64,000 nt of DNA from Thermoanaerobaculia bacterium. GTDB taxonomy: Bacteria > Acidobacteriota > Thermoanaerobaculia > Multivoradales > Multivoraceae. Within the stretch, counting starts at the first letter, position 1. Every line of letters starts with the position of its first letter. The position numbers and the translations under genes are program-made. Below the pieces are notes generated by a model that had not been told where the DNA came from, did no database searches, and saw only the letters and a list, made by a program, of their open reading frames with translations. Location of the stretch: positions 1,951,497 through 2,015,496 of the forward strand of contig OY762911.1 in assembly GCA_963666565.1 (NCBI GenBank), given 5' to 3'. Positions 4,154 through 51,262 of this stretch are shown in pieces.

Positions 4154-4154
4154 G

Positions 4155-9708: not shown

Positions 9709-9996
9709 ATGACTCTGACCATAGAGCAACTGCGCGAGGAGCTGCATCGGGAACTGACCCCGATGCGCAAGGAGATTCGGGATCTGCGGACTGACGTGGC
9801 CGATCTCCGAGGGGAGATGGCCGACCTCAGAGTGGAAGTGGCCAAGCTCCCGACCAGGGACGACATGCGCGAACTGGTCCTGGACAAGACGAACGCCATG
9901 AAGGGCAATCTGCTCGCGTGGATTGCCGCTTCGGCCGTGGCCGTCACGGCTGCCCTGACCGCCGTGGTGTTTGGAATCGCCAAGCTCCTCGAGTAA
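9709..9996 (+). CDS. Small coiled-coil protein with a C-terminal TM helix (hypothetical)
   Basis: ATG start; heptad-like LREELHRELTPMRKEIRDLRTDVADLRGEMADLRVEVAKL, then a hydrophobic AWIAASAVAVTAALTAVVFGI segment. It lies divergent to the CarbopepD_reg gene and is followed by a solo REP hairpin. Confidence 0.45.
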   Translation: MTLTIEQLREELHRELTPMRKEIRDLRTDVADLRGEMADLRVEVAKLPTRDDMRELVLDKTNAMKGNLLAWIAASAVAVTAALTAVVFGIAKLLE

Positions 9997-10041
9997 CGGA
10001 GGCCCGGCGGCCGAGCGGGTGCTCGGTCGCCGGCGCCGGAT

Positions 10042-10065
10042 GCGGGTCGGAAGACCCGCGCACCC
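10042..10065. repeat. Solo REP unit (GCGGGTCGGAAGACCCGCGCACCC) between convergent genes
   Basis: Exact match to the right-TIR consensus of the MITE family. The unit is itself a 7-bp-stem hairpin. Confidence 0.8.
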
Positions 10066-10080
10066 GGCGCGGAGCGGCGG

Positions 10081-12360: not shown

Positions 12361-12523
12361 GGGCTCGGTACGCGGAGACGGGGTCGGCGGCGGTCGGCCG
12401 GACGTATGGGTTCGGCGGCTGCAGGGGCGCGTAGTTCGCGCCAGCGGGAACCGGCGCAGACTAGCAGGAGCGGACGGCGCCGAGCCGCAGCCGCGCGCGG
12501 TCTCTGCGGTAACGTCCGCCCCC

Positions 12524-18704: not shown

Positions 18705-18898
18705 GGGTGCGCGGGTCTTCCGACCCGCATGTCGGTGCGCGGGTCTTCCGACCCGCATGTCGGTGCGCGGGTCTTCTGACCCGCTGCCGCCGCAGGCGGC
18801 GTCCAGCATCGTCGCCGGCCTCCGGCCGGCGGCCTTCTTGTCCGGGCTGCGCCGCTCCGCGGCTTCGCCCCCGAGCGGGTCGGAAGACCCGCGCACCC
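18705..18898. repeat. MITE/REP-like element with the left TIR tandemly triplicated
   Basis: Three left-TIR units at 18705, about 18734 and about 18763, then internal sequence, then the right TIR at 18875-18898. The internal sequence is nearly identical to the copy at 19552-19717. Confidence 0.85.
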
Positions 18899-24616: not shown

Positions 24617-24785
24617 GGGTGCGCGGGTCCTCTGACCCGCTGCCGCCGAAGGCGGCCAGAAAGCGTGCCGGCAGCCGGCCGGCGCCGCAAGAGCCCCGTC
24701 GGCGCCGCCGCGAGAGCCCCGTCGCCGCCGCCGCAAGAGCCCCGTCGGCGCTGCCGCGAGAGCCCCCGTCGACGCCGCGGCAACA
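24617..24785. repeat. Truncated MITE/REP-like element (left TIR only) with internal 20-bp tandem repeats
   Basis: Left TIR GGGTGCGCGGGTCCTCTGACCCGC, then four copies of gccgc(a/g)agagccccgtcg.c.. ; there is no right TIR. Confidence 0.7.
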
Positions 24786-24791
24786 GCCTCA

Positions 24792-28947: not shown

Positions 28948-29126
28948 GGGTGCGCGGGTCCTCCGACCCGCTCAGGGGCGAAGCCGCGGAGCGGCGATCC
29001 CGGACAACGAGGGCTCCTGCCCAGGTTCGGCGACGAAGGGGTGCGCGGGTCTTCCGACCCGCAACCGTCCCCGGAGCGGGTCGGAAGACCCGCGTACCCG
29101 GAGCGGGTCGGGAGACCCGCGCACCC
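28948..29126. repeat. Compound MITE/REP-like element (left TIR, 66-bp spacer, then a minimal left TIR-13 bp-right TIR hairpin, then an extra right TIR)
   Basis: TIR units at 28948-28971, 29039-29062, 29076-29099 and 29103-29126. Confidence 0.8.
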
Positions 29127-31919: not shown

Positions 31920-34900
31920 TCACGGCGCCCTCGCCTGATCGTACGCCCGCCTGAACACGACCTCGGACATCCACCGCTTGAAGCCGTCGTTGTCCATGAA
32001 CTGCTTGAACAGCTCAGTGTCGTCCTTCATCACGTTCTGCATCGCGCGGAGCAGGGCCCGGTCGTGCTCGATGCGGGTGTTCTCGCGGTCGGAGTTCCGG
32101 CGAGCGTTGCGAAAGGCCGCGTCGGAGGCGACCCTGGCGGGAATGTCGAACGCGATCATCCGCTGGACGCGGTCTTCGTCCGCCCAATCATCCGCTGGAC
32201 GCGGTCTTCGTCCGCCCATTCGATGCCGCCGAAGTGGTCGTTGAACGCCTTGACGATGTTCGAGAGGTGGTCCAGTTCGGGTTCCGGCCGGTGGCCGTCG
32301 CCGGCGGGGGGCGTCGGCTCGACCTCGGCGTCCTCGTCGGGCAGGAGGATCTTCCGGATCGCCTGTTTCTCGGCCCGGTAGCTGTCCATGTCGACCGCGT
32401 CGAGGATGCCTCGCGCGAGATCCTCCTCCCGCGGCGCCGGCAGCTTCGGGATCAGGAAGTTCAGGAAGATCGACCGCTTCTCCCAGCCGGCGTTCGAGAA
32501 CGGGAGGATGGAGGAGAGGAAGCCGTAGGCGCGCGCGAACGCCTTGGCCTTTCCCTTGAAGTCGACCTGCCCGTCCTCGTCGAGTTCGCTCAGGTAGACC
32601 GCGACGCACTCGTCGAGGATCGGGTCGAGCCGGTCGCGCTCGGCGCCGTCCAGATAGCGCTCGACGAACAGGTCGACCTGCTCCGCCGAACAGACCTGCG
32701 CCGCGTCGAGGCCAGCCTGCAGGTCGTGCAGCCGGTCGGGGTCCGGCTCGTCGGCCAGGATCGTGCCGCGGTAGTAGTTCGCGAACGAGTCGCGGATGAT
32801 CTCCGTGTCGTTCAGGAAGTCGAGCACGAACACGTCGTGCTTGCCGGGGTGCGCCCGGTTGAGCCGCGAGAGGGTCTGCACCGCCTTGATGCCGGCAAGC
32901 GTCTTGTCGACGTACATCGTGTGCAGCAGCGGTTCGTCGTAGCCGGTCTGGAACTTGTCGGCGCAGACCAGGAACCGGTAGGGGTGTTCCCGGATCTTCG
33001 TCGCGATCCGGCTGGACGGGAAGCCGTTGAGCGAGGCTTCCGTGACCCTCGCGCCGCCGTATTCGTGCTCGCCCGAGAAGGCGACGATCGCCCGGTACGG
33101 GCTCTTCCTCGCGTCCAGGCAGTCGCGGATGGCGTGGAAGTACTGGATCGCGCGCTGGACGCCGTTCGTGACCACCATGGCCCGCGCCTCGCCGCCGATC
33201 TTGCGCGGCGCGGCGACCCGGTCGTGGAAGTGGTCCGCCACGATCTCGGCCTTCAGCCGGATGGCGTGGTCGTGCCCCTCGACGAAGCGCCGCAGCTTCC
33301 GCTGCGCCTTCTTGACGTCGAACTCCGGGTCGTCCTCGACGCTCTTTGCGAGCCGGTAGTAGCTCCTGACCGGCGTGTAGTGCTTCAGCACGTCGAGAAT
33401 GAAGCCCTCCTCGATCGCCTGCTTCATCGAGTAGGTGTGGAAGGCGCGGCGCCTGACCGTGCCGTCGGGTTGCGGTTCGGGAACTCCGAAGAGCTCCAGC
33501 GTCTTGTTCTTGGGTGTTGCCGTGAACGCGAAGTAGCTGGCGTTCGACAGCATCTTGCGCGACTCCATCAGGCGGTTGATCCGGTCCTCGTAGGTCTCCT
33601 CCTCGCCGCGGGCGCCGGCTTCGGAGAGGGCGCCCGAGACCGCGGCGCTGGTCCGGCCGCCCTGGCTTGAGTGGGCCTCGTCGATGACGATCGCGAACCG
33701 GCGTCCGCGCTGCTCGTTGCCGATGGCGTCCAGGACGTGGGGGAACTTCTGGATCGTCGTGATGACGATCTTCTTGCCGCCTTCGAGGAACTGGCGGAGG
33801 TCCGCCGAGCGGTCGGCGTGGCCGACGGTGGCGCCGACCTGCGCGTACTGCCTGATCGTGGCGTGGATCTGGCGGTCGAGAATGACCCGGTCCGTGACGA
33901 CGACGATGGAGTCGAAGACCGTGCCGCCGCCGCTTCGTCCCTGGGAGTTCGGGTCGCCGCCGCGCCCGTCCGGCCCGCTCGGTCGATGGTCCTCGGCCTC
34001 TTCGGCGCGCGGCTCGACGTCGCGGTTGCCGCCGCGCCGCTCGAGCCCGATCAGCCGGTGGGCCAGCCAGGCGATCGAGTAGCTCTTGCCGCTGCCCGCC
34101 GAGTGCTGGATCAGGTAGCGCCGGCCCGCGCCGTGCTCGGCCGCGTCGGCCAGGAGCCGGCGGACCACGTCGAGCTGGTGGTAGCGCGGCCAGATCTGCG
34201 TCTTCTTCTTCCGGCCCGTCTTCTCGTCCTTCGATTCGACGATCTGGGCGTAGTTCTCGACGATCTCCGTCAGGCTCTCACGAGTCAGGACCTCGCGCCA
34301 CAGGTAGTCCGCGGCCAGACCGTCAGGGTTGGGCGGGTTGCCGGCGCCATCGTTCCAGCCCCGGTTGAAGGGCAGGAACCAGGACGCCTTGCCTCGCAGG
34401 TGGGTGCAGAAGCGCACCTCCCGCTCGTCCGCCGCGAAGTGGACGATGCAGCGGCCGAACTCGAACAGCTTCTCCCGCGGGTTGCGGTCCTTCCGGTACT
34501 GCTCGACGGCGTCGCTGACCGTCTGCTTGGTCAAGCTGTTCTTCAGTTCGAACGTGACGACCGGCAGGCCGTTGACGAACAGCGCCAGGTCGAGCGCCAG
34601 TTGAGCCCGGTCGCCGCTGTAGCGAAGCTGCCGCGTGACGGTGAAGCGGTTCAGCTCGAAGCGTTGCCGCGCGGCCTCGTTGCCCTCCGACGGCGTGCCG
34701 TAGAACAGCTCCAGATCGTGCGCGCCGTGCCCGATGCCGTTCCGCAGCACGTCGATGGTCCCGCGCTTCGCGATCTCGCCCTGCAACCGGGCGAGGAACT
34801 TCCGCCGCGCCGGCCCGTCCTCGTCCAGGGCCAGGCCGTCCGCGGCGTCGGGCTGCGTGGCTTGGAGGAAGGCCGAGAGCTGGGTGAAATCGACGCAGTA

Positions 34901-35095
34901 GTTCCGGTCGTAGTCGCGGGGGTCGCCGGGGGTCCAGCCGGCGGTGGTGGGGGCCGTGGTGCGGGCGCTGCCGGAGGCGGGGCTCGGTTCGGCCGGTTGG
35001 GGGAGTTCGCCGGGCTTCGGCGGGTCGCAGGGGTGGCCGGTGAGGGCCGTGCAGATGAGGCGCTCGAGGCCGCGTTCGGACGTGTCGGTGGTCAC
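31920..35095 (-). pseudogene. hsdR: Type I restriction enzyme R subunit (HsdR), frameshifted about 75 codons before the native C-terminus by a 32-bp tandem duplication
   Basis: HsdR_N motifs (VVTFELKN), helicase motifs (SAGSGKSYS Walker A, DEAHSSQ motif II) and the C-terminal domain. ORF 32156..35095 ends ...EWADEDRVQRMIGRTKTASSG*. The native continuation ...WADEDRVQRMIAFDIPARVAS... to the stop at 31920 is in another frame (track ORF 31920..32609). Confidence 0.8.
32155..32218. repeat. 32-bp perfect tandem duplication (atcatccgctggacgcggtcttcgtccgccca x2) that frameshifts hsdR
   Basis: Direct reading: copies at 32155-32186 and 32187-32218. 32 is not a multiple of 3, and the duplicated peptide WADEDRVQRMI appears in both reading frames. 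Confidence 0.9.
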
Positions 35096-35134: not shown

Positions 35135-36280
35135 TCAGCCGTCACGACCGGCCGCCTCGCGGCGCTTCCCCAGCATGTTCCGATACACCGTGTCGGAAGT
35201 CGCCTTGACGTCCTCGGTGATGTCCAGCAGCGATTCGTCCTGGCCGTCGTAGGCCCGGAGAGAGCCGACAGCGTCGCGCATGGCGCTGCGCGCTTGCAGA
35301 AGGGACACGAGGAAGCGCCGGTCCATCGGTTCGGTGGCCGCGTGCGCCTGGTGCAGGGCGTATCCGGCTGCCAGGAGTTCCCGTGCCTCTGCGTGCGGAA
35401 GGACTTCTCCGAGCCGTTTGATGTCGGGGTTCATCGCGTGGACCGCAGGCGGGATGTCGCCTTGCCTCGAGCCGTAGATCCAGAGGAGCACCTCTCGAAG
35501 ACAGTCCAGCTTCTCCGCGGGGACGGGGTCGGGCCGCGGTTCGTCCGGCGGCCAGGTACGTGCCAGCCCGAGGTACTCCCGGTACTGCGAACGCGAGAGG
35601 GCGACGTACAGATGAGCGAAGCTGAACTTCGGCGTGTAGCGGTCCTCGATGTCGAACAGGCCCTCCCTGACTGCCTGCTCCAGTACGTAGACGGCGGACA
35701 CCATCCGCTTGACCGCGCCGTGGCGGTCGCCGAGCGCGCTGGCGATTCGCTCGATGCCGACGTCCCCTTCCCGGTACCAGTCCGTCGCGAACCGCGCCTT
35801 GGCGTAGGCGCTCCACTTGGCGGCGCCGTTGATGTGCTTGAAACCGATGAACGCCCGCGCATCCTCGCGCTTCGCGACCCGATAGACCGTCACCTCGTCG
35901 AGGGTGTGGCGGAGCGAATCCCGGACCTCGGGCACCGTGATCTGGAGCTTCTTCTCGGGGAAGATCCTGCCCGCCAGCCTGCTCGCCAACTCCGGCTCCC
36001 GCAAGAGCCTGAGCGCTGCGAGGCGGCGATTCCCCTCAAGGACGATCAACTCGTCGCTGCCGGCGGCGCCCATCGCGACCAGCGGTTCGATGTCGAGGTA
36101 GCCGTTCGTCGAGATCGACTGAAGCAGTTCGTCGAGTCCCGCGGAGTAGAGCCGGGCGATGATCGACTCCTCCGTGGCTCGCCTCCCTCGATCCGGGAAT
36201 CTCGGAGCCTCGCGGTCCAGGCGGAGTCGCTCGACGGGGACCTTCGCCGCCGTCCCAACTCGTGACTGCGCCTCGTGCAT
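35135..36280 (-). CDS. ParB/Sulfiredoxin-fold (ParB-like nuclease domain) protein, encoded 40 bp upstream of hsdR on the same strand
   Basis: ParB N-terminal domain signature (DELIVLEGNRRLAALRLL; compare the ParB GERRxRA box), then about 250 aa of helical sequence. ATG at 36280. The track ORF 35135..36352 is slightly longer. Confidence 0.6.
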   Translation of the reverse strand: MHEAQSRVGTAAKVPVERLRLDREAPRFPDRGRRATEESIIARLYSAGLDELLQSISTNGYLDIEPLVAMGAAGSDELIVLEGNRRLAALRLLREPELASRLAGRIFPEKKLQITVPEVRDSLRHTLDEVTVYRVAKREDARAFIGFKHINGAAKWSAYAKARFATDWYREGDVGIERIASALGDRHGAVKRMVSAVYVLEQAVREGLFDIEDRYTPKFSFAHLYVALSRSQYREYLGLARTWPPDEPRPDPVPAEKLDCLREVLLWIYGSRQGDIPPAVHAMNPDIKRLGEVLPHAEARELLAAGYALHQAHAATEPMDRRFLVSLLQARSAMRDAVGSLRAYDGQDESLLDITEDVKATSDTVYRNMLGKRREAAGRDG

Positions 36281-36399
36281 GACGCCGGCTATCTTAGACG
36301 CAGGGGCCCGTGGGTGTCGCGGTGGCCAGTGAACCCGGCTCCAGGTCGGCAAGTGCCCAGGGCGTCACCTTTGGCCCGGCAGCTTCCGCAGACGAGAAG

Positions 36400-39300
36400 A
36401 TGTGCATGGACTTGGAGACTGCACCCCGCGGTTCAACGGTGGTGTACTGTCTCGCCTTCCGTGACCTTGGAGGAACGAGGTGGGGGTGCTTGCCGGCGCG
36501 CCGGCGAACTTTCCGGCCCGAGTACGTCGAGATGCCGTTACCAGGAGGGCCCGCTGCCAAGCTCGGTATCCGCTACGAGAAGTGGTGGACGCTCTCGGAG
36601 TTCGTTCGAATGCTCCACGGAGAGACAGACTCGATTCGGCTGGAGGAGCCCGGTCTTGATGCAGCAGAGTTCGTTGTGAGGAACGGCTCGCAGCGCGAGT
36701 TTCATCAGGTAAAGCGCCGCAACCCGAGCGGGAAGTGGAGCTTGCCAGCGCTTAAGTCCGAAGGTGTTCTTCAAGCGATGGGGCGGAGGCTGGCCAACAG
36801 CGCCGACTGCTTTGTCTTCGCATCAAGCTCTGACGCGCCGGAGCTCTCCGATCTGTGTGACACCGCTGGCGGATCAGCTTCAATCGAAGAGTACCGACGG
36901 GTCTTCCTCAAAGCCGACTCGCGCCGAGAGCCCTTTGACGAGCTGCGCCGAGCGTGGGGCTGCAGCCTTGAGGAGACGTTCAATCGGCTGCGGCGAATCG
37001 AGGTCAGTACGATCAACGAGCGCGAACTGCGAAAGACCGTCGAACGAGGGTTGCGGGCACTCTTCATCTCGAACCCGGCCGACGTGGAGAAGACGCTACT
37101 GGCGATGGTCGATGACTCCTTGCATCAGACCCTTACACGCCAGGGACTTAGGGAGACCCTCACCCGTAGCGGCTACCAGATGCGGCACCTCAACAACCCA
37201 GAGGACGCGGCCGGGGCCGTACGACGAGCGACCGATGATCACTACCTCGTGAGGGCCCAGAAGCGGCTCATTCAAGAGCGACTCGTTCCAACGGACGCCG
37301 CAAGGGTGGTGCTTTCTCGCCTGGGCGAAACGTCGACGGACCTTGTCCTGGTTGGGAAGGCCGGCGTCGGCAAGACGGCCTGTATCGTTGAGGTAGTGCG
37401 CGCCTTGCGAGAGCAGCGCGGTATGCCAGTCTTGGTCTTTCGCCTCGATCACCATACGTCGGCACGGTCCACTAGAGAGATTGGCCAGCAGTTGGAACTG
37501 GAGGAGTCGCCCGCGTTCGTTCTGGCCGCCGCAGCGGAGTCCGCGAACCGGTCTGGCGTTCTGATCGTGGATCAGTTGGACGCGGTCAGCACGATGCCTG
37601 ACAGGGGGTCCGGCGCTCTTGATGTGGTTGAGGCGCTGCTTGACGAGACCCGAGGCCTTCGGGCGCGGGTTCCCGTTCACACGATAGTCGTGAGTCGGGA
37701 GTTCGATTGGGAGCACGACCCGCAGCTTAGGGGGCTTGCCGCCAAGTCCGCGGGGCCGGTCAAGGTCACGGAGTTCCATGTGGCCCAGGTCAAGGAGATC
37801 CTGGCGGACGCTGGTTTCGATCCGACACTCTTCGGGGAGAATCAACTCCAGGTCCTACGGCTCGCGCAGAATTTGTCGCTGTTCTTGGACACCGGTTTCT
37901 CTGCCTCCTGCGCTCCGGCGTTCCGCACGGCCAAGCACCTGTTCGACCGATACTGGTCCTACAAGCAGCGAGTGGTTGACAGGAGAGCGGGGAATCTAGC
38001 GGGCCGCTGGACCGAGATCGTGCGGAGGGTCTGCGACGAGATGACGTCGTCTCAGCGTCTCGCGGTTCCGAAGGAGAGGCTCGACGAAGTGCCAGAGGAC
38101 TATCTGCAACAGATGGCGTCGGAGGGCGTGCTGACGTTCGACGGCCACTGCTACGGCTTCGGGCACGAGAGCTTCTTCGACTATTGCTCCGCGCGTCTGT
38201 TTTGCGGCCGGTCGGAGCGACTTGTGTCGTTGTTGACGGGTGCAGAGCAGCATCTTTTCCGACGTTCCCAGGTGCGCCAGGTTCTGGTCTACCTTCGCGA
38301 CGAGGACTTCCCCAGGTACGTGGAAGAGGTTGGTGAGCTCCTCTCGGATGAGGGGATTCGCGTCCACATCAAGCATCTTGTGTTCGCGCTCTTGGCTGGT
38401 GTCGAGGAGCCGAGGGCTGAGGAGTGGGCGATCTGGGAGACGTGGATCGGACCAGAACTGAAGGCGATCGAGGCCGATGCACAAGGTCAGAACGCGTTGT
38501 CGGCCCTCGCGTGGCGGTCGTTCTTCGTTGCAGGCTCGTGGTTCCGCATCGCCGATGACCGCGGGAAGGTCGAGGAGTGGCTTGGCGGCCGTGGAGACCA
38601 GCTCGGCGACTTGGCGGTGAGATACCTCTTGGCGCATCATCGCCACTCGCCTGATCGAGTCTCGGCTCACCTCAATCCGTATGTCGACTCCGGCGGTCGG
38701 TGGCCCCAACGCTTTCTGTACTTCATGGGGCGCGTCCAGCACGGCGCCAGCAGATCACTCTTCGAGCTGTTTCTCCGTTTGGTGGACAACGGTGTACTGG
38801 ACGATGGCCGGGCGATGTTCGCCTCCAACGAGACGTTCTGGGACATGCTCCGGGATCTGAAGGAGGATCGGCCGGAGTGGATTGCTGAGGCGCTCGCCCA
38901 CCGGCTCCGACGCCGGCTACGACTCCGCCTTGAGGACGATTCGGACGCCTATCCAGGACGGCTCCTGGGCAACCACGGCTCGGGCTCCCGCGTGTTTGTG
39001 AAGTCGGCTGCGAACGCTCCCGCTGCGTATGTGAAGCACGTCCTGCCGGCGGTGCTTGAGGTCGTCGATTCGACGGTTACGGGGGAGAAACCGCCGAGGC
39101 GGGATACGGTTTGGTTTCTCCTTCACGAGTTCAGCCATCTCAGTGCCGACGAGACATGTCTGAAGTGCCTCGGCCAAGCGCTGGCGACGGTGGCTCAGGT
39201 CGATAGAAGATCGGCAAGAGAGCTGATTGCCGACTTGCGAGGGCGAGATAGCCACACGGCGAACTACCTGCTATTGGCGCTCTATCGGGGGGAGCCAACC

Positions 39301-41046
39301 CGGTATGCCGACGAGGCAATGTCACTGCTGTGTGAGGAACCCTGGCGACTTGAATGCGGCGCAGGCGGTAACGGATGGTGGTACGCGATGGAGACGATCC
39401 GGGCGACCTTTCCTCACTGTTCTGCGCCCACACGTGCGAGGCTCGAGGCACTGATTGTCGGACATGCCGACTGGTTTGAGCGGACCAAGGAAGGCCGACA
39501 ATCGGAGGGTCGTGCTCGGTTCGCCCTCCTTTCGGCAATCCCTGCGGATCTCCGCGGCAGGCAAGCGCATAAGCACTTTCAGGAGTTGGAGCGGAAGTTC
39601 GGGGAACCTCCGGGGAAACCACGCGGGCCGGAGGGCGGTCTCGTTGGGCCTCCGATACCTGCCGAGTCCACCGTCAAGATGACGGATCAGCAGTGGCTTC
39701 GGGCCATCGCGAAGCACTCCGCCGAGTGGTCGCCTCGCCGTTATTCACGGAACATACAGAAGGGCGGTGCGCGGGAATTGGCGGGAACTCTGGTCGAACG
39801 CACCCAGGAGGAACCAGAGCGGTTCGCTCGTCTGTGCCTGCGTTTCCCGGCCGATGCGAACCCCGCCTATCTCGACGGCGTCTTGTCTGGCCTGAAGGAG
39901 GCTTCGATAGCGAATGAGTTGAAGCTCCAGGTCTGCCGCAAGGCGTTCGGTGAGGCTTTCGATTACTGCGGTCAGTCGGTAGCGGACGTCCTCGGTGGCC
40001 TTGAGTCTCCAGTCCCGGCGGAGGCCATGGGGATGCTTGACCGGCTTGCGACTGAGCACAGTGATCCCAGTTCGGAGGCGTGGCAGAAGAAGACGGCGGA
40101 CGGTCGTCGAGTCTTCAACGGCGACATCTACTGGAGCGGTATCAACTCGACACGTGGACAGACAGCCCTTGCGGTCGCCAAGCTCATCTCTGCGGACGAC
40201 TCGTGCCTGACGCCGTTCCGGCCGACCCTTGATCGGATGGTCGAGGACGAAAGCCCGGCCGTCGTTTCTTGCGTCATTGGCACGCTCTTGGCCGTTGCCT
40301 ATCACGAGCCCAAACTCGCGCTGCGGCTCCTCGGAAGAACGAACCTGTCCGAGGTCCGGCTGCTCGCTACTCGGCACGCTCGACATCTTCTTCACGGCAC
40401 CCTGCATCGGAACTTCGACCAGGTCCGCCCGTTTCTCAAGCGCATGATTCAGTCGTCGGAACCGGAGGTCTGCCAAGCAGGCGCTCGCTTGCTCAGCGTC
40501 GCGGCGCTGAGCCACGAAGGAGCGGCGGAGCTTGTAGCGCGGTGTCTCGGGGGCAGCGCCGCCCACCGGCTCGGTGTGTGCGAGGTGGCCGCTGCCAACG
40601 TGGCCGACTCGGAGTGTGGGGCGTGGTGCGAGCGAACCCTCTCGGAACTGTTCGATGACGCCGATGCCAATGTCCGAAAAGAGGCTGCGACCTGCTTCCG
40701 GCATGTCGAGAACGAACCGCTCGAAGAGTACGCGGACCTGGTCCAGGCGTTCTGTAGCAGCAGGGCCTATCGCGACGACCCGTTCTGGCTGCTCGACGTC
40801 TTGGAGACGGTGCGAGGTCGACTGCCGGGCGTAACGATCATGGCCTGCGAACGGTTCTTCGACCGATTCGACGGGCTTGAGCAAGGCCGGACTCGTGGGC
40901 TCCGTACGATTGTCAAGCTGATCTTCCGGGCGTACCAGCAGTACGAGCAAGAGAGTTGGGGTCAGCGGTCACTGGATCTCATCGACAGACTCTGTCTTGA
41001 AGGCATCTACGAGGTCGGAAAGGAACTCGATCACTTTGATCGGTAG
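36400..41046 (+). CDS. Giant P-loop NTPase (NACHT/STAND-like) with an N-terminal putative PD-(D/E)xK-like domain and about 1000 aa of C-terminal alpha-helical repeats; candidate antiphage Avs-like protein
   Basis: Walker A LVLVGKAGVGKTACIV, then Walker B VLIVDQLDAV (hhhhDxxD, NACHT-like), about 70 aa downstream. The N-terminal region carries a D...(E/Q)xK pattern (LEEPGLDAAEFVV...REFHQVK). The long C-terminal region is ARM/HEAT-like helical with no enzymatic motif. Start is ATG at 36400 or 36406, or GTG at 36310. Confidence 0.6.
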   Translation: MCMDLETAPRGSTVVYCLAFRDLGGTRWGCLPARRRTFRPEYVEMPLPGGPAAKLGIRYEKWWTLSEFVRMLHGETDSIRLEEPGLDAAEFVVRNGSQREFHQVKRRNPSGKWSLPALKSEGVLQAMGRRLANSADCFVFASSSDAPELSDLCDTAGGSASIEEYRRVFLKADSRREPFDELRRAWGCSLEETFNRLRRIEVSTINERELRKTVERGLRALFISNPADVEKTLLAMVDDSLHQTLTRQGLRETLTRSGYQMRHLNNPEDAAGAVRRATDDHYLVRAQKRLIQERLVPTDAARVVLSRLGETSTDLVLVGKAGVGKTACIVEVVRALREQRGMPVLVFRLDHHTSARSTREIGQQLELEESPAFVLAAAAESANRSGVLIVDQLDAVSTMPDRGSGALDVVEALLDETRGLRARVPVHTIVVSREFDWEHDPQLRGLAAKSAGPVKVTEFHVAQVKEILADAGFDPTLFGENQLQVLRLAQNLSLFLDTGFSASCAPAFRTAKHLFDRYWSYKQRVVDRRAGNLAGRWTEIVRRVCDEMTSSQRLAVPKERLDEVPEDYLQQMASEGVLTFDGHCYGFGHESFFDYCSARLFCGRSERLVSLLTGAEQHLFRRSQVRQVLVYLRDEDFPRYVEEVGELLSDEGIRVHIKHLVFALLAGVEEPRAEEWAIWETWIGPELKAIEADAQGQNALSALAWRSFFVAGSWFRIADDRGKVEEWLGGRGDQLGDLAVRYLLAHHRHSPDRVSAHLNPYVDSGGRWPQRFLYFMGRVQHGASRSLFELFLRLVDNGVLDDGRAMFASNETFWDMLRDLKEDRPEWIAEALAHRLRRRLRLRLEDDSDAYPGRLLGNHGSGSRVFVKSAANAPAAYVKHVLPAVLEVVDSTVTGEKPPRRDTVWFLLHEFSHLSADETCLKCLGQALATVAQVDRRSARELIADLRGRDSHTANYLLLALYRGEPTRYADEAMSLLCEEPWRLECGAGGNGWWYAMETIRATFPHCSAPTRARLEALIVGHADWFERTKEGRQSEGRARFALLSAIPADLRGRQAHKHFQELERKFGEPPGKPRGPEGGLVGPPIPAESTVKMTDQQWLRAIAKHSAEWSPRRYSRNIQKGGARELAGTLVERTQEEPERFARLCLRFPADANPAYLDGVLSGLKEASIANELKLQVCRKAFGEAFDYCGQSVADVLGGLESPVPAEAMGMLDRLATEHSDPSSEAWQKKTADGRRVFNGDIYWSGINSTRGQTALAVAKLISADDSCLTPFRPTLDRMVEDESPAVVSCVIGTLLAVAYHEPKLALRLLGRTNLSEVRLLATRHARHLLHGTLHRNFDQVRPFLKRMIQSSEPEVCQAGARLLSVAALSHEGAAELVARCLGGSAAHRLGVCEVAAANVADSECGAWCERTLSELFDDADANVRKEAATCFRHVENEPLEEYADLVQAFCSSRAYRDDPFWLLDVLETVRGRLPGVTIMACERFFDRFDGLEQGRTRGLRTIVKLIFRAYQQYEQESWGQRSLDLIDRLCLEGIYEVGKELDHFDR

Positions 41047-41176: not shown

Positions 41177-42550
41177 TCAGGGGAGCGCAACGGCCGTGTG
41201 GCGCACGTCAAGCTTCCCGGTGACCGCGTCGGCAGTCACTCGTGCGCGGAACTCGCTGAGAAGGGCGATGTGGCGGTGCGTGCGGTCGATTGCGGCTGCG
41301 TGTCGGTCCGTGACTTTCCGGCAGAACTGCGCGATGGCGACCTGCTCGGGCGGCGGTGGCAGGCAGACGCGCAACCGCGAGACGATTTCGGCATTCAGGT
41401 TGGACATCGTAGAGCCGACCGATGCGAGTTCGAGTGCATCGCGGGTGCGTGACGAGTTCAGAACGAGAAGGAGGTAGTCGGGCGAACAGACCGTCTTTCT
41501 TGCCCGGAGTCGCAGGCTGCCAGTACCGCAGATCCAGCCTGCTTGGGCGGAACGCACCAGGGCGGAGCGACCGACTTCGCCGCGCCGGGCGATGACGACG
41601 TCGCCAGTAGCGAGTCGGTGCCTTGAGAGTTCCGCCGCCTTCCGTCCGGTGACGGCTATGGAGCGATCTGGCGCTATCCTGCCTTCGCTCAGGTGCGACG
41701 GATTGATGACGGGAACGCCGCCGTCGATGTACTCGTCGGCATGGAGTTGACTACCGAACGGCCCGGTCTGAATCGAGTTCGACGCTGTGCCAAGTGCAAG
41801 TTCAGGCCAGTGCGCCGGCACTTCCGTCAGCCATTCGACCTCCGATTCCTTGTATTCGAGATAGGGCTGGCCGGTCCGGACGTCGATCTGGCCGGTGACG
41901 GCCTGATGCACGATGGCCTGTTGCTGCTCCTCCAGCAGCCCGATCAGCTTCTCCTTCTTCCGAATGGCCCGACGGATGTGCCGGTCGATGTAGTCGAGAA
42001 AGCGGGCGATGGCGGTCTGTTCGGCTAGCGGAGGCAGCGTTAGCGGCAGGTCTCGCCAGCGTTCGGTTGGAAGCCTGCGCGTGCCATGCCCTGCTTCGTC
42101 GATCAGAGGAAACAGGCCGTCGCGAGCGCAAGCGAGGAACGACGCCAGATAGGCCGCGTTGAGCGCGGGACAGGGGCGTAGGGCTTTCATGTCCTGGTTG
42201 ATCGTTACCGGCGAGGTCGTTCTGGCGATGGGCACTCTGCGGGCAAGGATCATTCCGCGGACGACCATGAGCACGGCGGGAGGCTGAACCAACCGAAGTG
42301 CGGTTTCGGCGAGTGCGGCGTCTGTGACCCGCACACGCGAATCGCCGATCACCATGGTCTTCATGTCCTTCGGCGTGACCCATGGAATGTCGCCGTTCCA
42401 GAAGCGACCGTCTTCCATGCTGGGCGTCATTCCTCCCGAGATCGAGGCGCATTGCCGGAGCTTCCTCATCTTCCAATGCGCCGGTACCTCGCCCAGCCAC
42501 TCCACGCCGGAGTCCTCGTACTCGCTGTAGGCCTCCAGCGCGTGCGTCAT
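41177..42550 (-). CDS. hsdS: Type I restriction-modification specificity subunit (HsdS), two target-recognition domains
   Basis: Two TRDs are separated and followed by conserved coiled-coil regions (LAEQTAIARFLD..., PPPEQVAIAQFC...). The ATG at 42550 overlaps the upstream stop (ATGA). Confidence 0.85.
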   Translation of the reverse strand: MTHALEAYSEYEDSGVEWLGEVPAHWKMRKLRQCASISGGMTPSMEDGRFWNGDIPWVTPKDMKTMVIGDSRVRVTDAALAETALRLVQPPAVLMVVRGMILARRVPIARTTSPVTINQDMKALRPCPALNAAYLASFLACARDGLFPLIDEAGHGTRRLPTERWRDLPLTLPPLAEQTAIARFLDYIDRHIRRAIRKKEKLIGLLEEQQQAIVHQAVTGQIDVRTGQPYLEYKESEVEWLTEVPAHWPELALGTASNSIQTGPFGSQLHADEYIDGGVPVINPSHLSEGRIAPDRSIAVTGRKAAELSRHRLATGDVVIARRGEVGRSALVRSAQAGWICGTGSLRLRARKTVCSPDYLLLVLNSSRTRDALELASVGSTMSNLNAEIVSRLRVCLPPPPEQVAIAQFCRKVTDRHAAAIDRTHRHIALLSEFRARVTADAVTGKLDVRHTAVALP

Positions 42551-42903
42551 TCCTCGGACTGCTCGGCAGGTACCTTGGGTTCAATGGCTGGCTCGCTCTC
42601 GCCATGCCACCTTGTGCGTTCCATGAATCGGCGGAGGATGGGGTCCGTTGGGCGATAGTCCCGTATCCAGGCGTTGATCTCGCCGTTGGTCATGTCTTCG
42701 AACTTCCTGCTGAGGCGTTTCCGTTGCTCCCGCTCGTAGGCGACGCAGTCGAAGTCGTTCTCCTCTCTCTTGGCCGTCACTCCACCGGGGCCTTTCTGAC
42801 GCCCGAGTCCGCTACGAGGCGAAGCGGAAGGAGCTTGGCTCTCGGCGACCGCTCCCAGATACGACGGAGGATGGGGTCCGTGATCTCCCGGTTGTTCCTC
42901 CAC
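42547..42903 (-). pseudogene. Remnant of the PIN-gene 3' region (tail domain only), translationally coupled to hsdS
   Basis: ...FDCVAYEREQRKRLSRKFEDMTNGEINAWIRDYRPTDPILRRFMERT is homologous to the C-terminal tails of the PIN copies. Its stop overlaps the hsdS ATG. Confidence 0.35.
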
Positions 42904-43511
42904 TCCACCTGCTCCTCGGGAGTCATGGCTTCTAACTTCCGACTGATGCGGTCCCTCTGCTCGCGCACGAAGCCGACGCAGTCGAAGCTCTTGTCGTTCG
43001 GGTCGCGGAAGTTCTCGCCCAGGATGGCCGGAGGCTCGTACATCTTGATCCGGGGATGACCGAGTTCCCGGTTGACGGCGTCGAACTTGGGCCCGCGGCG
43101 GAAGTTCAGCAGGTGCTTGTAGTTCCAGCTCGCAAGCATGTCGACGTTTGCGAGCGTGGCGAAGGCGACGTGCAGGGCGGCGGGTCGCGCGGCCGGGTCC
43201 AACGCGCCCGCCTCGATGTAGCGGTCGGCGAGTTCCTCGGCTGCTCCCGACGGCTCCAGGAGCTCCGAGTGCTCCCGCGGCACCGTACCTAGCAGCGCTC
43301 TCGCGGCCTCGGTCGCCGCGTCCAACTCGCCCACGACCGCGGCCGACAGGACGAGGGTCATGTCGGCGGCACGGAACCCCTCGAACAGAGCCCGGGACGA
43401 CTCCCTGATCCAGTACTTCTCGTCCTCGCAGGCGGAGAACACGGAGGAGTCGACGTACACGCGGGGCGTTTCCGGCCAGGACGGAACCGGGTACGTCGTC
43501 TCAGCGGTCAT
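42777..43511 (-). CDS. PIN-domain nuclease-like protein with a C-terminal extension (distal copy C)
   Basis: PIN signature: N-terminal Asp (RVYVDSSVF), the acidic residues, and the C-terminal T/SxNxKH-type motif (NVDMLASWNYKHL). The ATG overlaps the stop of an hsdM C-terminal fragment. Confidence 0.6.
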   Translation of the reverse strand: MTAETTYPVPSWPETPRVYVDSSVFSACEDEKYWIRESSRALFEGFRAADMTLVLSAAVVGELDAATEAARALLGTVPREHSELLEPSGAAEELADRYIEAGALDPAARPAALHVAFATLANVDMLASWNYKHLLNFRRGPKFDAVNRELGHPRIKMYEPPAILGENFRDPNDKSFDCVGFVREQRDRISRKLEAMTPEEQVEWRNNREITDPILRRIWERSPRAKLLPLRLVADSGVRKAPVE

Positions 43512-43690
43512 CGTCCACCTCTTTCGACGGACCGGGCGCCATGCCGCCCATGATCTGGGCCAGCAGGCCGTCGGTCATCGTCTCCAGCGTCAGGCTGTCA
43601 GCCTGGAACTCCGCCAGCGGCCGCATGGGCTCGGGCCTGTAACAGTAGCGGTCGAAGCCGATCTCGTAGCGGGTCTTCATGGTGACTGGA
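43501..43690 (-). pseudogene. Duplicated hsdM 3' terminal fragment (encodes the last ~59 aa of HsdM)
   Basis: MKTRYEIGFDRYCYRPEPMRPLAEFQADSLTLETMTDGLLAQIMGGMAPGPSKEVDDDR aligns to the HsdM C-terminus (VKTSYEISFNRYFYKPEPMRPLAEIQADILALETQTEGLLAEIMGGMVPGPSKEVDDDR). Confidence 0.6.
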
Positions 43691-44130
43691 GTTGTACCAC
43701 GCATCGGCGGCTCAGGGCACCGCCTCGCGGCGCGGCAACGCCTTGATGCCGCCGTTCTTCGATCCCTGTCGCGGAGGTTCGCCGCGGTCTTGTTCGGCCG
43801 CGCCAGCAGGCGGCCCAGCGGTTCAGGCCGGGAGATCGTGATCCTCGGAGGGCGTGTCCTGCACGCTGGCATTGCGATCCCGCAGGCGCTCGACAAGACG
43901 CCGCAGCTTCGGGTCTGTCGGTAGGTAGTTGCGCATCCAGGCGCCTATCTCGTCGCTGCTCATGCCTTCGAGCTCCTTGCCGGCCGCGGCGATCACGGCC
44001 GCCGCAGCCAGCCTCAAAGCCTCGAACCGGCTCAAACCGTCTAGACACGCGCAACGGTCGCGGGCCTCGCCTTGCCGGCGACCGCCCGGCCAAGCACTGC
44101 GGCGAGGGACCGTGATCGCTCAGACAGTGG

Positions 44131-44475
44131 TTAGCGGAGATGCTCGCGCAGAGAAGCGCCGGGCTTCGGCCAGTCGTACCACGATTCCCAGAACACGCCC
44201 TTTGTCCCGCTTTCGCGTCGCGTACACCCAAAGTGCAGGCGGGTCCCCTCAAGGTATCCGCTGACGCGGTGCGGCTTGTCAGTAACGACGTCCAAGCCGA
44301 ACCCCGTCGCGCTCTCTATCCCCGCGAGACAGCTTGCGAGCGTCGCCCGCTCGGCACCCATTGTGATCGTTGACGACTCGCCGCCGCACGCGACGACCAC
44401 AGCGAAGCCGACGCTCACGACCGCTACTAGCGCCAAGCGGCGCACGTTCCCTAGCGCTTTCTCCATGAAAGCCAA
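44131..44475 (-). CDS. Small putative lipoprotein (114 aa) inserted within the degraded middle PIN copy
   Basis: Signal peptide with lipobox (LALVAVVSVGFAVVVACGG). The sequence is unrelated to the PIN module. Confidence 0.4.
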   Translation of the reverse strand: MAFMEKALGNVRRLALVAVVSVGFAVVVACGGESSTITMGAERATLASCLAGIESATGFGLDVVTDKPHRVSGYLEGTRLHFGCTRRESGTKGVFWESWYDWPKPGASLREHLR

Positions 44476-44987
44476 AGCGTATCACGCGGACCGCGACCGC
44501 GGCCGGGAGCTTCTTCCGCTGCTCGCGCTGGAAGGCGGCCTGCAAGGCGATGGGTCCCGTCGCCGCATCCACCGCGCTCCCTTCGACGTAGCGGTCGGCG
44601 AGTTCCTCGGCTGCTCGCGACGGTTCCAGCAACTCCGAGTGCTCCCGCGGCACTTTGTTTGGCAGGGCTCTCGCGGCCTCGGTCGCCGAGTCCAACTCGC
44701 CCGCGACCGCGGCCGACAGGACGAGGGTCACGTCGCCGGCACGGAAACCCCTCGAACAGAGCCCGGGACGACTCGCTGGTCCAGTACTTCTCGTCCTCGC
44801 AGGCGGAGAACACGGAGGAGTCGACGTACACGCGGGGCGTCTCCGGCCAAGACGGAACCGGGTACGTCGTCTCAGCGGTCATCGTCCGCCTCCTTCGACG
44901 GACCGGGCGCCATGCCGCCCATGATCTCCGCAGGCCCTCGGGCTGCGGCTCCAGGCTGTCAGCCTGGATCGCCGCCAGTGGCCGCAT
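44279..44987 (-). pseudogene. Degraded PIN-domain gene (middle copy B), frameshifted and with its central part replaced
   Basis: The N-terminus MTAETTYPVPSWPETPRVYVDSSVFSACEDEKYW (track ORF 44451..44987) goes out of frame. The middle (track ORF 44279..44731) matches the PIN central region (MTLVLSAAVAGELDSATEAARALP...), then diverges. Confidence 0.5.
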
Positions 44988-45176
44988 GGGCTCGGTTCTC
45001 TAGTAGCGGTTGAAGCTGATTTCGTAGCCGGTCGTCACGATCCTGGAGTTGTACCACGCGTCGGCGGCTCAGGGCACCACCTCGCGGCGCGGCAGGCCTT
45101 GCTGCCGCCGTTCTTGGATCCGTGTCACGAAGACTCGCCTCGACTCTGTTCGGCCGCCAGCAGGCGGCCCAGCGGT

Positions 45177-45902
45177 TCAGGCCGGGAGATCGTGATCCTG
45201 GGAGGGCGTGTCCTGCACGCTGGCATCGCGATCCCGCAGGCGCTCGACCAGGCGCCGCAGCTTCGGGTCTGTCGGTAGGTAGTTCCGCGTCCAGGCACCG
45301 ATCTCTTCGCTGGTCATGCCTTCGAACTCCTTGCCGAGCTTCTTCCGTTGCTCGCGCATGAAGCCGACGCAGTCGAAGCTCTTGTCATTCGGGTCGCGGA
45401 AGTTCTCGCCCAGGATGGCCGGAGGCTCGTACATCTTGATCCGGGGATGACCGAGTTCCCGGTTGACGGCGTTGAACCTGGGCCTGCGGTAGACGTTCAG
45501 GAGGTGCTTGTGGTTCCAACTCGCGAGTGTGTCGACGTTTGCGAGCGTGGCGAAGGCGACGTGCAGGGCGGCGGGTCGCGCGGCCGGGGCCACCGCGCCC
45601 GCTTCGATGTAGCGGTCGGCGAGTGCCTCGGCTGCTCGCGACGGTTCCAGAAACTCCGAGTGCTCCCGCGGCACCGTACCTGGCAGGGCTCTTGCGGCCT
45701 CGGTCGCCGAGTCCAACTCGCCCGCCACCGCGGCCGAGAGGACGAGGGTCATGTCGCCGGCACGGAACCGCTCGAACAGAGCGCGAGACGACTCCCTGAT
45801 CCAGTACTTCTCGTCCTCGCAGGCGGAGAACACGGAGGTGTCGACGTAGATGCGGGGTGTTTCCGGCCAGGGCGGTACCGGGTACGTCGTCTCAGCGGTC
45901 AT
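45177..45902 (-). CDS. PIN-domain nuclease-like protein with a C-terminal extension (proximal copy A, coupled to hsdM)
   Basis: The same PIN motifs as copy C (IYVDTSVF...NVDTLASWNHKHL), with a distinct C-terminal tail (...GAWTRNYLPTDPKLRRLVERLRDR). The ATG overlaps the hsdM stop. Confidence 0.65.
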   Translation of the reverse strand: MTAETTYPVPPWPETPRIYVDTSVFSACEDEKYWIRESSRALFERFRAGDMTLVLSAAVAGELDSATEAARALPGTVPREHSEFLEPSRAAEALADRYIEAGAVAPAARPAALHVAFATLANVDTLASWNHKHLLNVYRRPRFNAVNRELGHPRIKMYEPPAILGENFRDPNDKSFDCVGFMREQRKKLGKEFEGMTSEEIGAWTRNYLPTDPKLRRLVERLRDRDASVQDTPSQDHDLPA

Positions 45903-47910
45903 CGTCCACCTCCTTCGACGGACCGGGCACCATGCCGCCCATGATCTCGGCCAGCAGACCCTCGGTCTGCGTCTCCAGGGCCAGGATGTCGGCCTGGATC
46001 TCCGCCAGCGGCCGCATTGGCTCGGGCTTGTAGAAGTAGCGGTTGAAGCTGATCTCGTAGCTGGTCTTCACGGTTCTGGAGTTGTACCACGCATCCGGGG
46101 CCCAGGGCAGGACCTCGCGGCGCAGAAAGGCCTCGATGCCGCCGTCCTCCTGGAGCGGGATCTGCTCGGTGTCGCGGAGGCTCGTGTCCGGCTCGTACTC
46201 GACGACGGCGGTCCGGCCATCGACCTTCGCCTCGAACAGGCCGCGCAGCGGGTCGGCGGCGACGCCCCGCTTGTGGACCTTCCGGATCACCGGCGGCGCC
46301 TCTTCGCCCTCGCCGCGGACGCCAGTGGCCTTGAGTCCGCGGATCTCGGCGGCCTTGTAGGCGCGGCACCCGTCGATTCCCTCGATGCGGAGCGGCCGCT
46401 CGACGGTGACCTTCCAGTAGCCGAAGGCCTCGTTGTCGAAGACCTTGCTTTCCTCGGTCTCCTCGAAGGCGAGGAAGGCGTCGCAGATGCGGGCGATGTC
46501 CTCGTCGCCGAGTTCGCAGTTCTTCTTGCCGAGGTTCTTGCGCAGCGGCTGGAACCGCTTCGTGGCGTCGATGAGCTGCACCTTGCCCCGGCGGTGCTCC
46601 GGCTTGCGGTTCGTCAGCACCCAGACGTAGGTGGCGATGCCGGTGTTGTAGAACATGTTGAGCGGCAGGGCGACGATCGCCTCCAGCCAGTCGTTCTCGA
46701 CGATCCAGCGGCGGATGTTGCTCTCGCCCTGGCCGGCGTCGCCGGTGAAGAGGGAACTGCCGTTGTGGACCTCGGCGATCCGGCTGCCGAGCGGCGTGTT
46801 CCGCTTCATCTTGGCGAGCTTGTTGGCCAGGAAGAGCATCTGCCCGTCGCTGCTGCGGGTGACGAGGGAGAACTCCGGGTCGCCGCCGTGCTCGATCAGG
46901 AACCGCGGGTCGCGCATGTCCTTCTTGCCGCCCATGCGCGCGAGGTCCGTCTTCCAGCTCTTGCCGTAGGGCGGGTTGGAGAGCATGAAGTCGAACTCGC
47001 GGGCCGGGAAGGCGTCGTTCGAGAGCGTGGAGTGCTCCGGCCCGCCGACGATGTTGTCGGCGGCCGCTCCCTCGCCCTTGAGGAGAAGGTCGGCCTTGCA
47101 GATGGCGTAGGTCTCGGCGTTGATCTCCTGGCCGAAGAGGTGCGTGGAGACCTCCTTGCCGCGCTCGGCGGCGAGCGACTGGAGCACGTCCTCGGCCACG
47201 GTGAGGATGCCGCCGGTGCCGCAGGCGCCGTCGTAGAGGGTGTAGGTGGCGGACCGGAGTCGGTCGGCCACGGGCAGGAAGACGAGGTTCGCCATCAGCT
47301 TGACCGCGTCGCGCGGCGTGAAGTGCTCGCCGGCCTCCTCGTTGTTCTCCTCGTTGAAGCGGCGGATCAGTTCCTCGAAGATCGAGCCCATGCCGTGGTT
47401 GTCGAGGCCGGGGTGCTTCACGCCGCCGTCGCCGTCCGTCACCGGCTCGGGGCCCAGGTTGATGTCGGGCGAAGTCAGCTTCTCGATCAGCGTGCCGAGC
47501 GCGTCGGCCCGCGAGAGCCGCGGGATCTGGTTGCGGAACTCGAAGTTCTCGAGGATGTCCTGGACGTTCGGAGAGAAGCCGTCGAGCCACGCCTCGAAGT
47601 CGGCCCGGAGCCGCTGCCGGCCGGCGCGGGCGCGCAGGTCGCGCAGCGTGTAGCTGGACGTGTTGTAGAAGTCCTGCTTCGCCGCGTCCCGCAGGGTGGC
47701 GTCCTGGTCGACGATCTCGAGTTCGTCGAGAGTTGCCTTCACCTGCAGGACGTGCTGCTTGCGCGGCTCCAGCACCGCGTCGAGCCGCCGCAACAGGGTC
47801 ATCGGCAGGATGACGTCGCGGTACTTGCCGCGGACGTAGAGGTCGCGGAGGACGTCGTCGGCGATGCCCCAGATGTAGCCGGTGATCCAGCTCAGGGAGG
47901 CGTTGTCCAC
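45892..47910 (-). CDS. hsdM: Type I restriction-modification N6-adenine DNA methyltransferase subunit (HsdM)
   Basis: HsdM_N (IWGIADDVLRDLYV...DVILPMTLLRRLD), an AdoMet motif (YDGACGTGG) and the catalytic NPPY (LSNPPYG). Confidence 0.9.
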   Translation of the reverse strand: MDNASLSWITGYIWGIADDVLRDLYVRGKYRDVILPMTLLRRLDAVLEPRKQHVLQVKATLDELEIVDQDATLRDAAKQDFYNTSSYTLRDLRARAGRQRLRADFEAWLDGFSPNVQDILENFEFRNQIPRLSRADALGTLIEKLTSPDINLGPEPVTDGDGGVKHPGLDNHGMGSIFEELIRRFNEENNEEAGEHFTPRDAVKLMANLVFLPVADRLRSATYTLYDGACGTGGILTVAEDVLQSLAAERGKEVSTHLFGQEINAETYAICKADLLLKGEGAAADNIVGGPEHSTLSNDAFPAREFDFMLSNPPYGKSWKTDLARMGGKKDMRDPRFLIEHGGDPEFSLVTRSSDGQMLFLANKLAKMKRNTPLGSRIAEVHNGSSLFTGDAGQGESNIRRWIVENDWLEAIVALPLNMFYNTGIATYVWVLTNRKPEHRRGKVQLIDATKRFQPLRKNLGKKNCELGDEDIARICDAFLAFEETEESKVFDNEAFGYWKVTVERPLRIEGIDGCRAYKAAEIRGLKATGVRGEGEEAPPVIRKVHKRGVAADPLRGLFEAKVDGRTAVVEYEPDTSLRDTEQIPLQEDGGIEAFLRREVLPWAPDAWYNSRTVKTSYEISFNRYFYKPEPMRPLAEIQADILALETQTEGLLAEIMGGMVPGPSKEVDDDR

Positions 47911-51041: not shown

Positions 51042-51083
51042 GGTTGGGCTCCTTAGGCTGGCTGACTGGCTCGCCGCTTCGCG

Positions 51084-51262
51084 GCTTCGCGCTCGATGCG
51101 GGTCGGAAGACCCGCGCACCCGGTATTCGGCTTCGCGCTCGATGCGGGTCGGAAGACCCGCGCACCCGGTATTCGGCTTCGCGCTTGGTGCGGGTCGGAA
51201 GACCCGCGCACCCGGTATTCGGCTTCGCGCTTGGTGCGGGTCGGAAGACCCGCGCACCCAGC
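51084..51262. repeat. Tandem array of four 47-bp REP units (cggtattcggcttcgcgctYgRtgcgggtcggaagacccgcgcacc)
   Basis: Direct reading: four head-to-tail units, each containing the GCGGGTCGGAAGACCCGC hairpin, with essentially identical 23-bp linkers. Confidence 0.9.

Follow-up and report, generated by a model that had tools for sequence, protein, structure and literature searches.

The question that this locus raises is whether a restriction gene interrupted by a perfect tandem duplication is simply broken, or whether it is resting in one position of a switch that can be turned back. The locus lies in a stretch of 64,000 nucleotides (nt), hereafter the window, from a Thermoanaerobaculia bacterium (Acidobacteriota; GenBank assembly GCA_963666565.1, contig OY762911.1, positions 1,951,497 to 2,015,496 of the forward strand), and the gene is hsdR, coding for the restriction subunit of a Type I restriction-modification (R-M) system. 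We consider it likely, with a probability of about 0.7, that hsdR carries a real and recent 32-bp tandem duplication, which is an ordinary loss-of-function lesion, revertible only incidentally and not an evolved switch. In this scenario, a recent duplication arose within hsdR, shifting the frame by +2 and leading translation to a stop nine codons further on, inside the second copy, so that 77 conserved C-terminal residues are removed. Restriction would be lost and methylation kept, hsdM and hsdS being intact. The loss of one copy, by replication slippage or RecA-independent deletion, would restore hsdR exactly, a property that we regard as incidental to the lesion.

Direct reading of the window reveals ATCATCCGCTGGACGCGGTCTTCGTCCGCCCA standing twice, head to tail and with zero spacer, at 32155-32218 of the plus strand, inside a gene encoded on the minus strand. 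The features of the interrupted gene are these:

32187..32218, minus strand: second 32-nt copy in plus-strand order, being the first on the coding strand; native frame, WADEDRVQRMI (sequence; Tandem Repeats Finder, TRF)
32155..32186, minus strand: first 32-nt copy in plus-strand order, being the second on the coding strand; out of frame, ..GRTKTASSG* (sequence, TRF)
32156..35095, minus strand: truncated hsdR open reading frame (ORF) of 979 amino acids (aa), with an HSDR_N PD-(D/E)xK nuclease, an SF2 motor (GSGKS, DEAH) and most of the C-terminal helical region (ORF list, Pfam, PADLOC)
31920..32159, minus strand: native-frame tail of hsdR, M969-P1047 plus stop, detached from the gene body with its ORF still intact (translation, orthologue comparison)
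32156..32159, minus strand: ATGA, made up of the native M969 ATG and, overlapping it, the stop (TGA) at which the truncated ORF ends (direct reading)

TRF calls the repeat with a period of 32, 2.0 copies, 100 % matches, 0 % indels and a score of 128, and a script comparison found the two copies identical, the period-32 identity extending over exactly 64 nt. According to the same script, the junction has no microhomology, since the flanking bases G/A (left) and T/A (right) break the repeat at once. No third copy with up to 3 mismatches exists elsewhere in the 64-kb window, and none of 100 dinucleotide shuffles produced a match at that tolerance; the perfect duplication is far beyond chance. The only other tandem repeats that TRF finds in hsdR are weak, imperfect 9-12-nt repeats near its 5' end, and a simple-sequence tract of many 1-7-nt units was found neither within the gene nor upstream of it. 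No unusual hairpin is predicted either, as DNA folding of 32135-32240 gives z = 0.19. A codon-degenerate scan of Joint Genome Institute (JGI) metagenomes with the 32-mer returned no match, and exact look-ups of the products of the truncated ORF (with V or M start), the tail ORF, hsdS and a neighbouring 358-aa gene returned no identical protein. Two other origins of the repeat were considered and rejected: a target-site duplication left by a mobile element, because nothing lies between the two copies, and a CRISPR-type repeat duplication, because no sequence separates them.

The consequence for the reading frame follows from the length of the unit. As 32 mod 3 is 2, the frame is shifted by +2 and a TGA is reached within nine codons, still inside the second copy. 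On the coding strand the gene reads ...IEWADEDRVQRMI and then GRTKTASSG*, the first copy being in the native frame and the second one shifted; the truncated product keeps native residues 1-970, ends in nine aberrant ones (GRTKTASSG) and lacks the 77 residues of the native tail (971-1047). The 79-aa tail ORF begins exactly where the truncated ORF ends (ATGA at 32159-32156), an overlap that needs no special explanation because the duplicated unit ends in ...ATGAT and the shift is +2. Programmed ribosomal frameshifting as a means of reading through was rejected upon inspection, the second copy having neither a slippery nor an RF2-like site. The complete C-terminal region is thus not found in one frame, and we treat the gene as a disrupted member of its family. 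Removing one copy in silico yields a single ORF of 1047 aa. The original prediction had described a perfect 32-bp duplication at 32155-32218, a frameshift about 75 codons before the native stop, the peptide WADEDRVQRMI in two minus-strand ORF translations (32156..35095 and 31920..32609), and the recovery of a 1047-aa HsdR upon deletion of one copy. Reading, TRF and script bear out the duplication; the frameshift is there, with the exact loss amounting to 77 residues; the peptide occurs in both translations; and intact orthologues align with the recovered protein from end to end, covering 100 % of it.

On sequence grounds, the interrupted gene is that of a Type I restriction enzyme R subunit (HsdR). 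In a window of 70 % GC, the ORF at 32156..35095 (minus strand) has a third-position GC content (GC3) of 0.94 and is coding by codon-position GC. It matches HSDR_N, SWI2_SNF2, ResIII, T1R_D3-like and DEAD models in Pfam and REase_I in PADLOC (2.5e-41). The nuclease domain is recognised by HSDR_N (PF04313, 3.5e-18, residues 146-235), and D169, E183 and K185 (..TFELKN..) are invariant in an alignment of 54 orthologues; the SF2 motor is recognised by SWI2_SNF2 (5e-25) together with ResIII and DEAD, with GSGKS and IDEAHSSQ invariant in the same alignment. The NCBIfam model TIGR00348 hsdR gives 179.9 bits, under its cut-off of 284.55, and we therefore assign the protein to a divergent HsdR subfamily. 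Genes for hsdM and hsdS neighbour it on the same strand, in an arrangement that recurs in two syntenic contigs of related organisms (L001 and L082 in our numbering). EcoR124I HsdR (PDB 2W00 and related entries) has the same order of parts, namely a PD-(D/E)xK nuclease, two RecA-like motor domains and a helical C-terminal region; it is nevertheless a distant relative, whose profile match (E = 2.7e-13) covers the nuclease and motor region only, the C-terminal 270 residues being unaligned by sequence. Just past Walker A, the protein also contains a low-complexity insertion, RRGGNRDVEPRAEEAEDHRPSGPDGRGGDPNSQGRSGGG (window about 33920-34042, HsdR residues about 352-392), which it has in common only with its best database match, P0001; the insertion is shorter in a few close relatives, absent from most orthologues and disordered in an AlphaFold prediction.

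Does the gene lose anything of importance with its last 77 residues? Upon searching the repaired 1047-aa protein against 5.8 billion proteins, we obtained more than 100 matching proteins of about 1000 aa that cover 99-100 % of its length, several of them labelled 'type I restriction endonuclease subunit R' by their source and coming from metagenome-assembled genomes (MAGs) of Acidobacteriota. The best match, P0001, is 95 % identical and likewise 1047 aa long, and the closest relatives of the host are sponge or marine MAGs. Past ...RVQRMI, all aligned orthologues run on with the pattern AFDIPARVA.D.AFRNA..NSD.EN.R.EH...KDD..LFKQ..D...FK.W.....F, and many columns between I970 and F1037 are invariant in the 54-sequence alignment. 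The frameshift interpretation would have been wrong if intact orthologues ended near ...RVQRMIG and the region 31920-32155 were unlike HsdR; instead, about 77 strongly conserved residues follow, to which window 31920-32155 corresponds. A single unbroken full-length alignment was obtained for 79 of 80 orthologues taken from the species representatives of GTDB.

L001, the contig from which P0001 comes, shares synteny with the window. The hsdR of L001 has a DNA identity of 94.3 % and a coding sequence as long as that of the repaired gene, and it holds the 32-mer in a single copy with one synonymous difference. When tail codons 969-1047 are compared with L001, six synonymous and two non-synonymous differences appear, the latter both within the last three residues, with no stops or indels. 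Since the tail codons are undamaged and the two copies identical, the lesion looks young, with no detectable decay, and we infer that the duplication is evolutionarily recent. The wider subfamily, at 66-75 % identity (loci L002-L081), occurs in MAGs labelled as many phyla and taxa, including Latescibacterota, Binatia, Gammaproteobacteria, Spirochaetia, Gemmatimonadota, Chloroflexota, Poriferihabitaceae and Entotheonella, and several titles indicate sponge or marine-invertebrate sources. Such a distribution suggests extensive horizontal transfer of this Type I system within the communities of sponges and marine invertebrates.

The structural role of the tail was approached with an AlphaFold2 run on the intact orthologue P0001 and the 54-sequence alignment. 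The resulting model is of low quality as a whole (mean pLDDT, the predicted local distance difference test score, 47; pTM, the predicted template modelling score, 0.28) because this alignment is too shallow and its sequences too similar; the C-terminal helices alone are confident, with pLDDT of about 70-90 (about 72-86 by blocks across residues 971-1047). They are predicted at 963-980, 982-990, 993-1011, 1016-1024 and 1026-1045, and the truncation is thus predicted to cut within the first and to remove the four that follow. When solved HsdR structures were compared by phmmer and with the 54-sequence profile, the nuclease and motor parts could be aligned to EcoR124I, and the lost tail could not. 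For EcoR124I, the C-terminal part of HsdR is reported to take part in the assembly with the methylase core and in DNA binding, to judge by the title of Grinkevich et al. 2018 (reference 48 in PMC11411939), and a review (PMC12707154) reports that a C-terminal HsdR mutation alters the cycling between R1 and R2 complexes. Keeping in mind this analogy and the strong conservation of the tail, we suppose that the tail would be required for assembly with the methylase core. Restriction has probably been lost, because the missing tail is strongly conserved and predicted to be helical.

The other two subunits bear on what would remain of the system:

41177..42550, minus strand: hsdS, 457 aa, with two target-recognition domains, apparently intact (Pfam Methylase_S in two stretches; PADLOC Specificity_I 6e-95 and 5e-86, the latter over residues 5-452)
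45892..47910, minus strand: hsdM, 672 aa, full length compared with its orthologues (Pfam HsdM_N and N6_Mtase; PADLOC MTase_I 1e-233)

Over residues 1-672, the hsdM product matches its L002 orthologue at 95 %, and the stops of the two coincide; those of most orthologues lie no more than a few codons away. Because hsdM and hsdS are intact, the genotype is predicted to be restriction-negative and methylation-positive (r- m+), that is, the organism would methylate and would not restrict. Certain hsdM orthologues are longer, having 148-160 aa added at the C-terminus (L082, at 1981-4365, as well as L012, L027, L077 and L062). In L082 this extension matches, at 83 % identity, the C-terminal half of a separate 241-aa gene of the window, and the extended hsdM of L082 looks like a gene fusion or a deletion variant.

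Before turning to the rival readings, it is important to see how often hsdR is damaged in related organisms, and how. In L082, which is syntenic with the window, hsdR (9935-12951) lacks its first 14 codons and is shifted by -1 where a run of C has shortened (CCCCCC to CCCCC), some 120 codons ahead of the stop; P0038, which it encodes, shares 94 % identity with P0002 and 89 % with the repaired HsdR, of which it covers 85 %. This homopolymer shift could be a long-read error. In L015, hsdR has an N-terminal frameshift near codon 26 (contig positions 10001-10150). As these lesions are unrelated to each other and to that of the window, sporadic loss of hsdR by assorted mutations seems to be normal in the family, a picture that agrees more with ordinary decay than with a dedicated mechanism. 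None of the 81 orthologous hsdR genes compared in total has a tandem duplication that is perfect or out of frame, and none comparable was found in the close syntenic relatives L001, L002 and L082. The 1.66 Mb of related loci and the window together contain about 20 perfect tandem repeats with a period of at least 15, most of which belong to long-period arrays or repeat every 15 or 18 nt, multiples of three, and the window's 28- and 46-nt arrays bear a REP-like palindrome; only the 32-mer of the window is shown to disrupt a gene, the others of the survey not having been mapped onto genes.

Against this background, the original prediction had offered two alternatives, a reversible ON/OFF switch for restriction and a young pseudogenising lesion, and it is the second that we favour. 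An operational switch would imply that one- and two-copy alleles coexist, that the duplication comes and goes often enough to make restriction phase-variable, and that r- m+ cells are permissive to incoming DNA. In general, R-M systems do commonly phase-vary (review PMC12707154), a perfect tandem duplication is by its nature unstable, and pneumococcal capsule genes do phase-vary by reversible intragenic duplications. Here, too, hsdR could be restored exactly to the wild type by a precise deletion, because the tail ORF is undamaged, and such a reversion is possible on general grounds. However, neither microhomology nor a hairpin is present to raise the rate at which duplications form, no comparable duplication recurs in the 81 orthologous genes or in the three syntenic relatives, and the lesions of relatives differ in kind and site, resembling random decay. 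The Type I systems known to phase-vary do so through short repeat tracts or hsdS inversions, and neither is present. Thus, a switch is quite unlikely as an account of the locus. Equally doubtful is its population version, a working restriction switch among symbionts in which the r- m+ state is transient and reverts via RecA-independent deletion, or, as a weaker variant, a low-activity split HsdR made via the ATGA. In its full form, this split reading holds that termination and reinitiation at the ATGA produce the 79-aa tail, which reassembles with the 979-aa body and keeps some restriction. The overlap at 32156-32159 is certainly present in the sequence and the tail ORF is intact and conserved; on the other hand, no convincing Shine-Dalgarno motif was seen by inspection upstream of the M969 ATG, the break falls inside the predicted helix 963-980, the body carries nine aberrant residues, and the ATGA is an automatic by-product of duplicating a ..ATGAT unit with a +2 shift. 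We know of no precedent for a split HsdR and regard it as highly improbable.

There remains the case that the duplication is not in the organism at all, the genome having one copy and the second stemming from an untrimmed 32-nt overlap between contigs or graph paths (for example k-1, with k = 33) or from a polishing error. Exactly 2.0 perfect copies without microhomology have the look of an untrimmed overlap, the closest intact relative (L001) is single-copy, and no independent assembly of the same strain was found that would confirm the duplication. Yet a second exact out-of-frame duplication was seen neither in the 64 kb of the window nor in 1.6 Mb of related loci; no interruption affects the neighbours shared with L001 and L082 (SodC, the 358-aa gene, SDF, hsdS), and errors are thus not widespread in the assembly; and the same locus holds larger and older segmental duplications (86-97 % identity) that look genuine. 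The names of related contigs, under naming conventions that we presume to apply, suggest long-read assemblies, and to our knowledge 32-nt overlap artefacts are not a known error mode of these. We judge an artefact unlikely. A few points do weigh against an ordinary recent lesion, the reading that we prefer. The duplication is known from one assembly, and a junction of zero microhomology is less typical of simple slippage. The word 'recent' is a loose bound as well, 64 identical nucleotides and 79 undamaged codons being compatible with a long absolute time. Moreover, the importance of the last 77 residues is deduced from conservation and from a distant model enzyme, the C-terminus of HsdR being unaligned to solved structures and the AlphaFold model having a mean pLDDT of 47.

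The surroundings of the lesion are worth describing in their own right. At a conserved chromosomal site, the hsd genes make up a defence island whose neighbours beyond hsdR are SodC, the conserved 358-aa gene and an SDR gene, and the cargo between hsdS and hsdR differs in each syntenic relative compared:

35135..36352, minus strand: 405-aa gene directly upstream of hsdR, PD-Lambda-5_A-like defence cargo (PADLOC; 60 % identical to a 377-aa gene of L001)
36310..41046, plus strand: 1578-aa AAA/HEAT protein between hsdS and hsdR, PDC-M54A-like and of lower GC3 (Pfam, PADLOC, codon-position GC)
35135-41046, whole cargo of the window: the PD-Lambda-5_A-like gene and the opposite-strand 1578-aa AAA/HEAT protein (PDC-M54A-like)
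L001, 5957-10004, whole cargo: a PD-Lambda-5_A-like homologue (377 aa), an N6_N4 methyltransferase and a Macro-domain protein
L082, 8064-9790, whole cargo: DarT and a Macro-domain protein (a DarTG-like pair)

To judge by these comparisons, the Type I operon acts as a scaffold for the swapping of defence genes. On the far side of hsdS, window positions 42600-46150 contain three direct copies of a module (86-97 % identity, spacing of about 1020-1370 nt), which is composed of the 3' end of hsdM and a gene of about 241 aa with a PIN-like 'IYVDTSVF' N-terminus and no Pfam or PADLOC match. The module ORFs are intact at 45177-45902 and 42777-43511, and the middle copy (around 44279-44987) is frameshifted. 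Given three copies, the hsd locus must also have undergone larger segmental tandem duplication. Elsewhere in the window, tandem arrays at 18706-18784, 29066-29126 and 51082-51259 (units of 28, 27 and 46 nt) have the palindrome CGGGTCTTCCGACCCG in common and look like a repeated element of the genome similar to REP (repetitive extragenic palindromic) sequences, and further imperfect tandem repeats lie at 88-278 (39/78 nt), 24678-24788 (23/46 nt) and 55953-56074 (36 nt).

As to what all this means, the annotation should call the gene a frameshifted hsdR pseudogene and state the cause. The organism is predicted to methylate, and not to restrict, at the target of this Type I system, and the locus adds one more case, beside L082 and L015, of the sporadic loss of hsdR in a system that is widely shared among MAGs of sponge and marine symbionts and serves as a scaffold for variable defence cargo. 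If both alleles were to be found in one population, duplication-driven phase variation, known in pneumococcal capsule genes, would extend to the restriction enzymes of uncultured symbionts. Were the switch real, it is tempting to suppose that r- m+ cells would transiently lower the barrier to incoming DNA, for example while swapping the cargo between hsdS and hsdR.

Finally, we would like to compare the locus with the known systems that it resembles. In pneumococcus, the capsule genes cap3A, cap8E and tts are on record as undergoing reversible intragenic duplication (Waite et al. 2001, 2003, as cited in PMC4022640 and PMC4243769). In the terms of those citing papers, a perfect duplication arises spontaneously in the ORF, shifts the frame and abolishes function, and the exact loss of one copy restores the gene, the expected reversion frequency depending on the length of the insertion (PMC4022640). 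The hsdR lesion shares the perfect, frameshifting intragenic duplication; it differs in that, for the capsule genes, measurements exist of the two states and of how often they switch, and these sources describe many independent duplications per gene, whereas hsdR offers a single observation and no recurrent independent duplication among related genes (0/81). With phase-variable Type I R-M systems, the locus would share the outcome, a heritable and reversible change in R-M activity, but it has neither a multi-unit short repeat tract nor inverted hsdS cassettes with a recombinase; its repeat is, unlike such tracts, two copies of 32 nt of ordinary coding sequence. The idea of a switch is therefore mechanistically possible and without support here. 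Natural loss-of-function alleles of hsdR (r- m+) differ in that they stem from a point mutation, a homopolymer indel or the insertion of an insertion sequence, and not from a perfect 32-bp duplication, and in that the phenotype is in our case a predicted one. What unites them with the locus is damage that affects hsdR only and spares hsdM and hsdS, and that is tolerated because methylation continues; the duplication described here is a new instance of this well-known kind of lesion.

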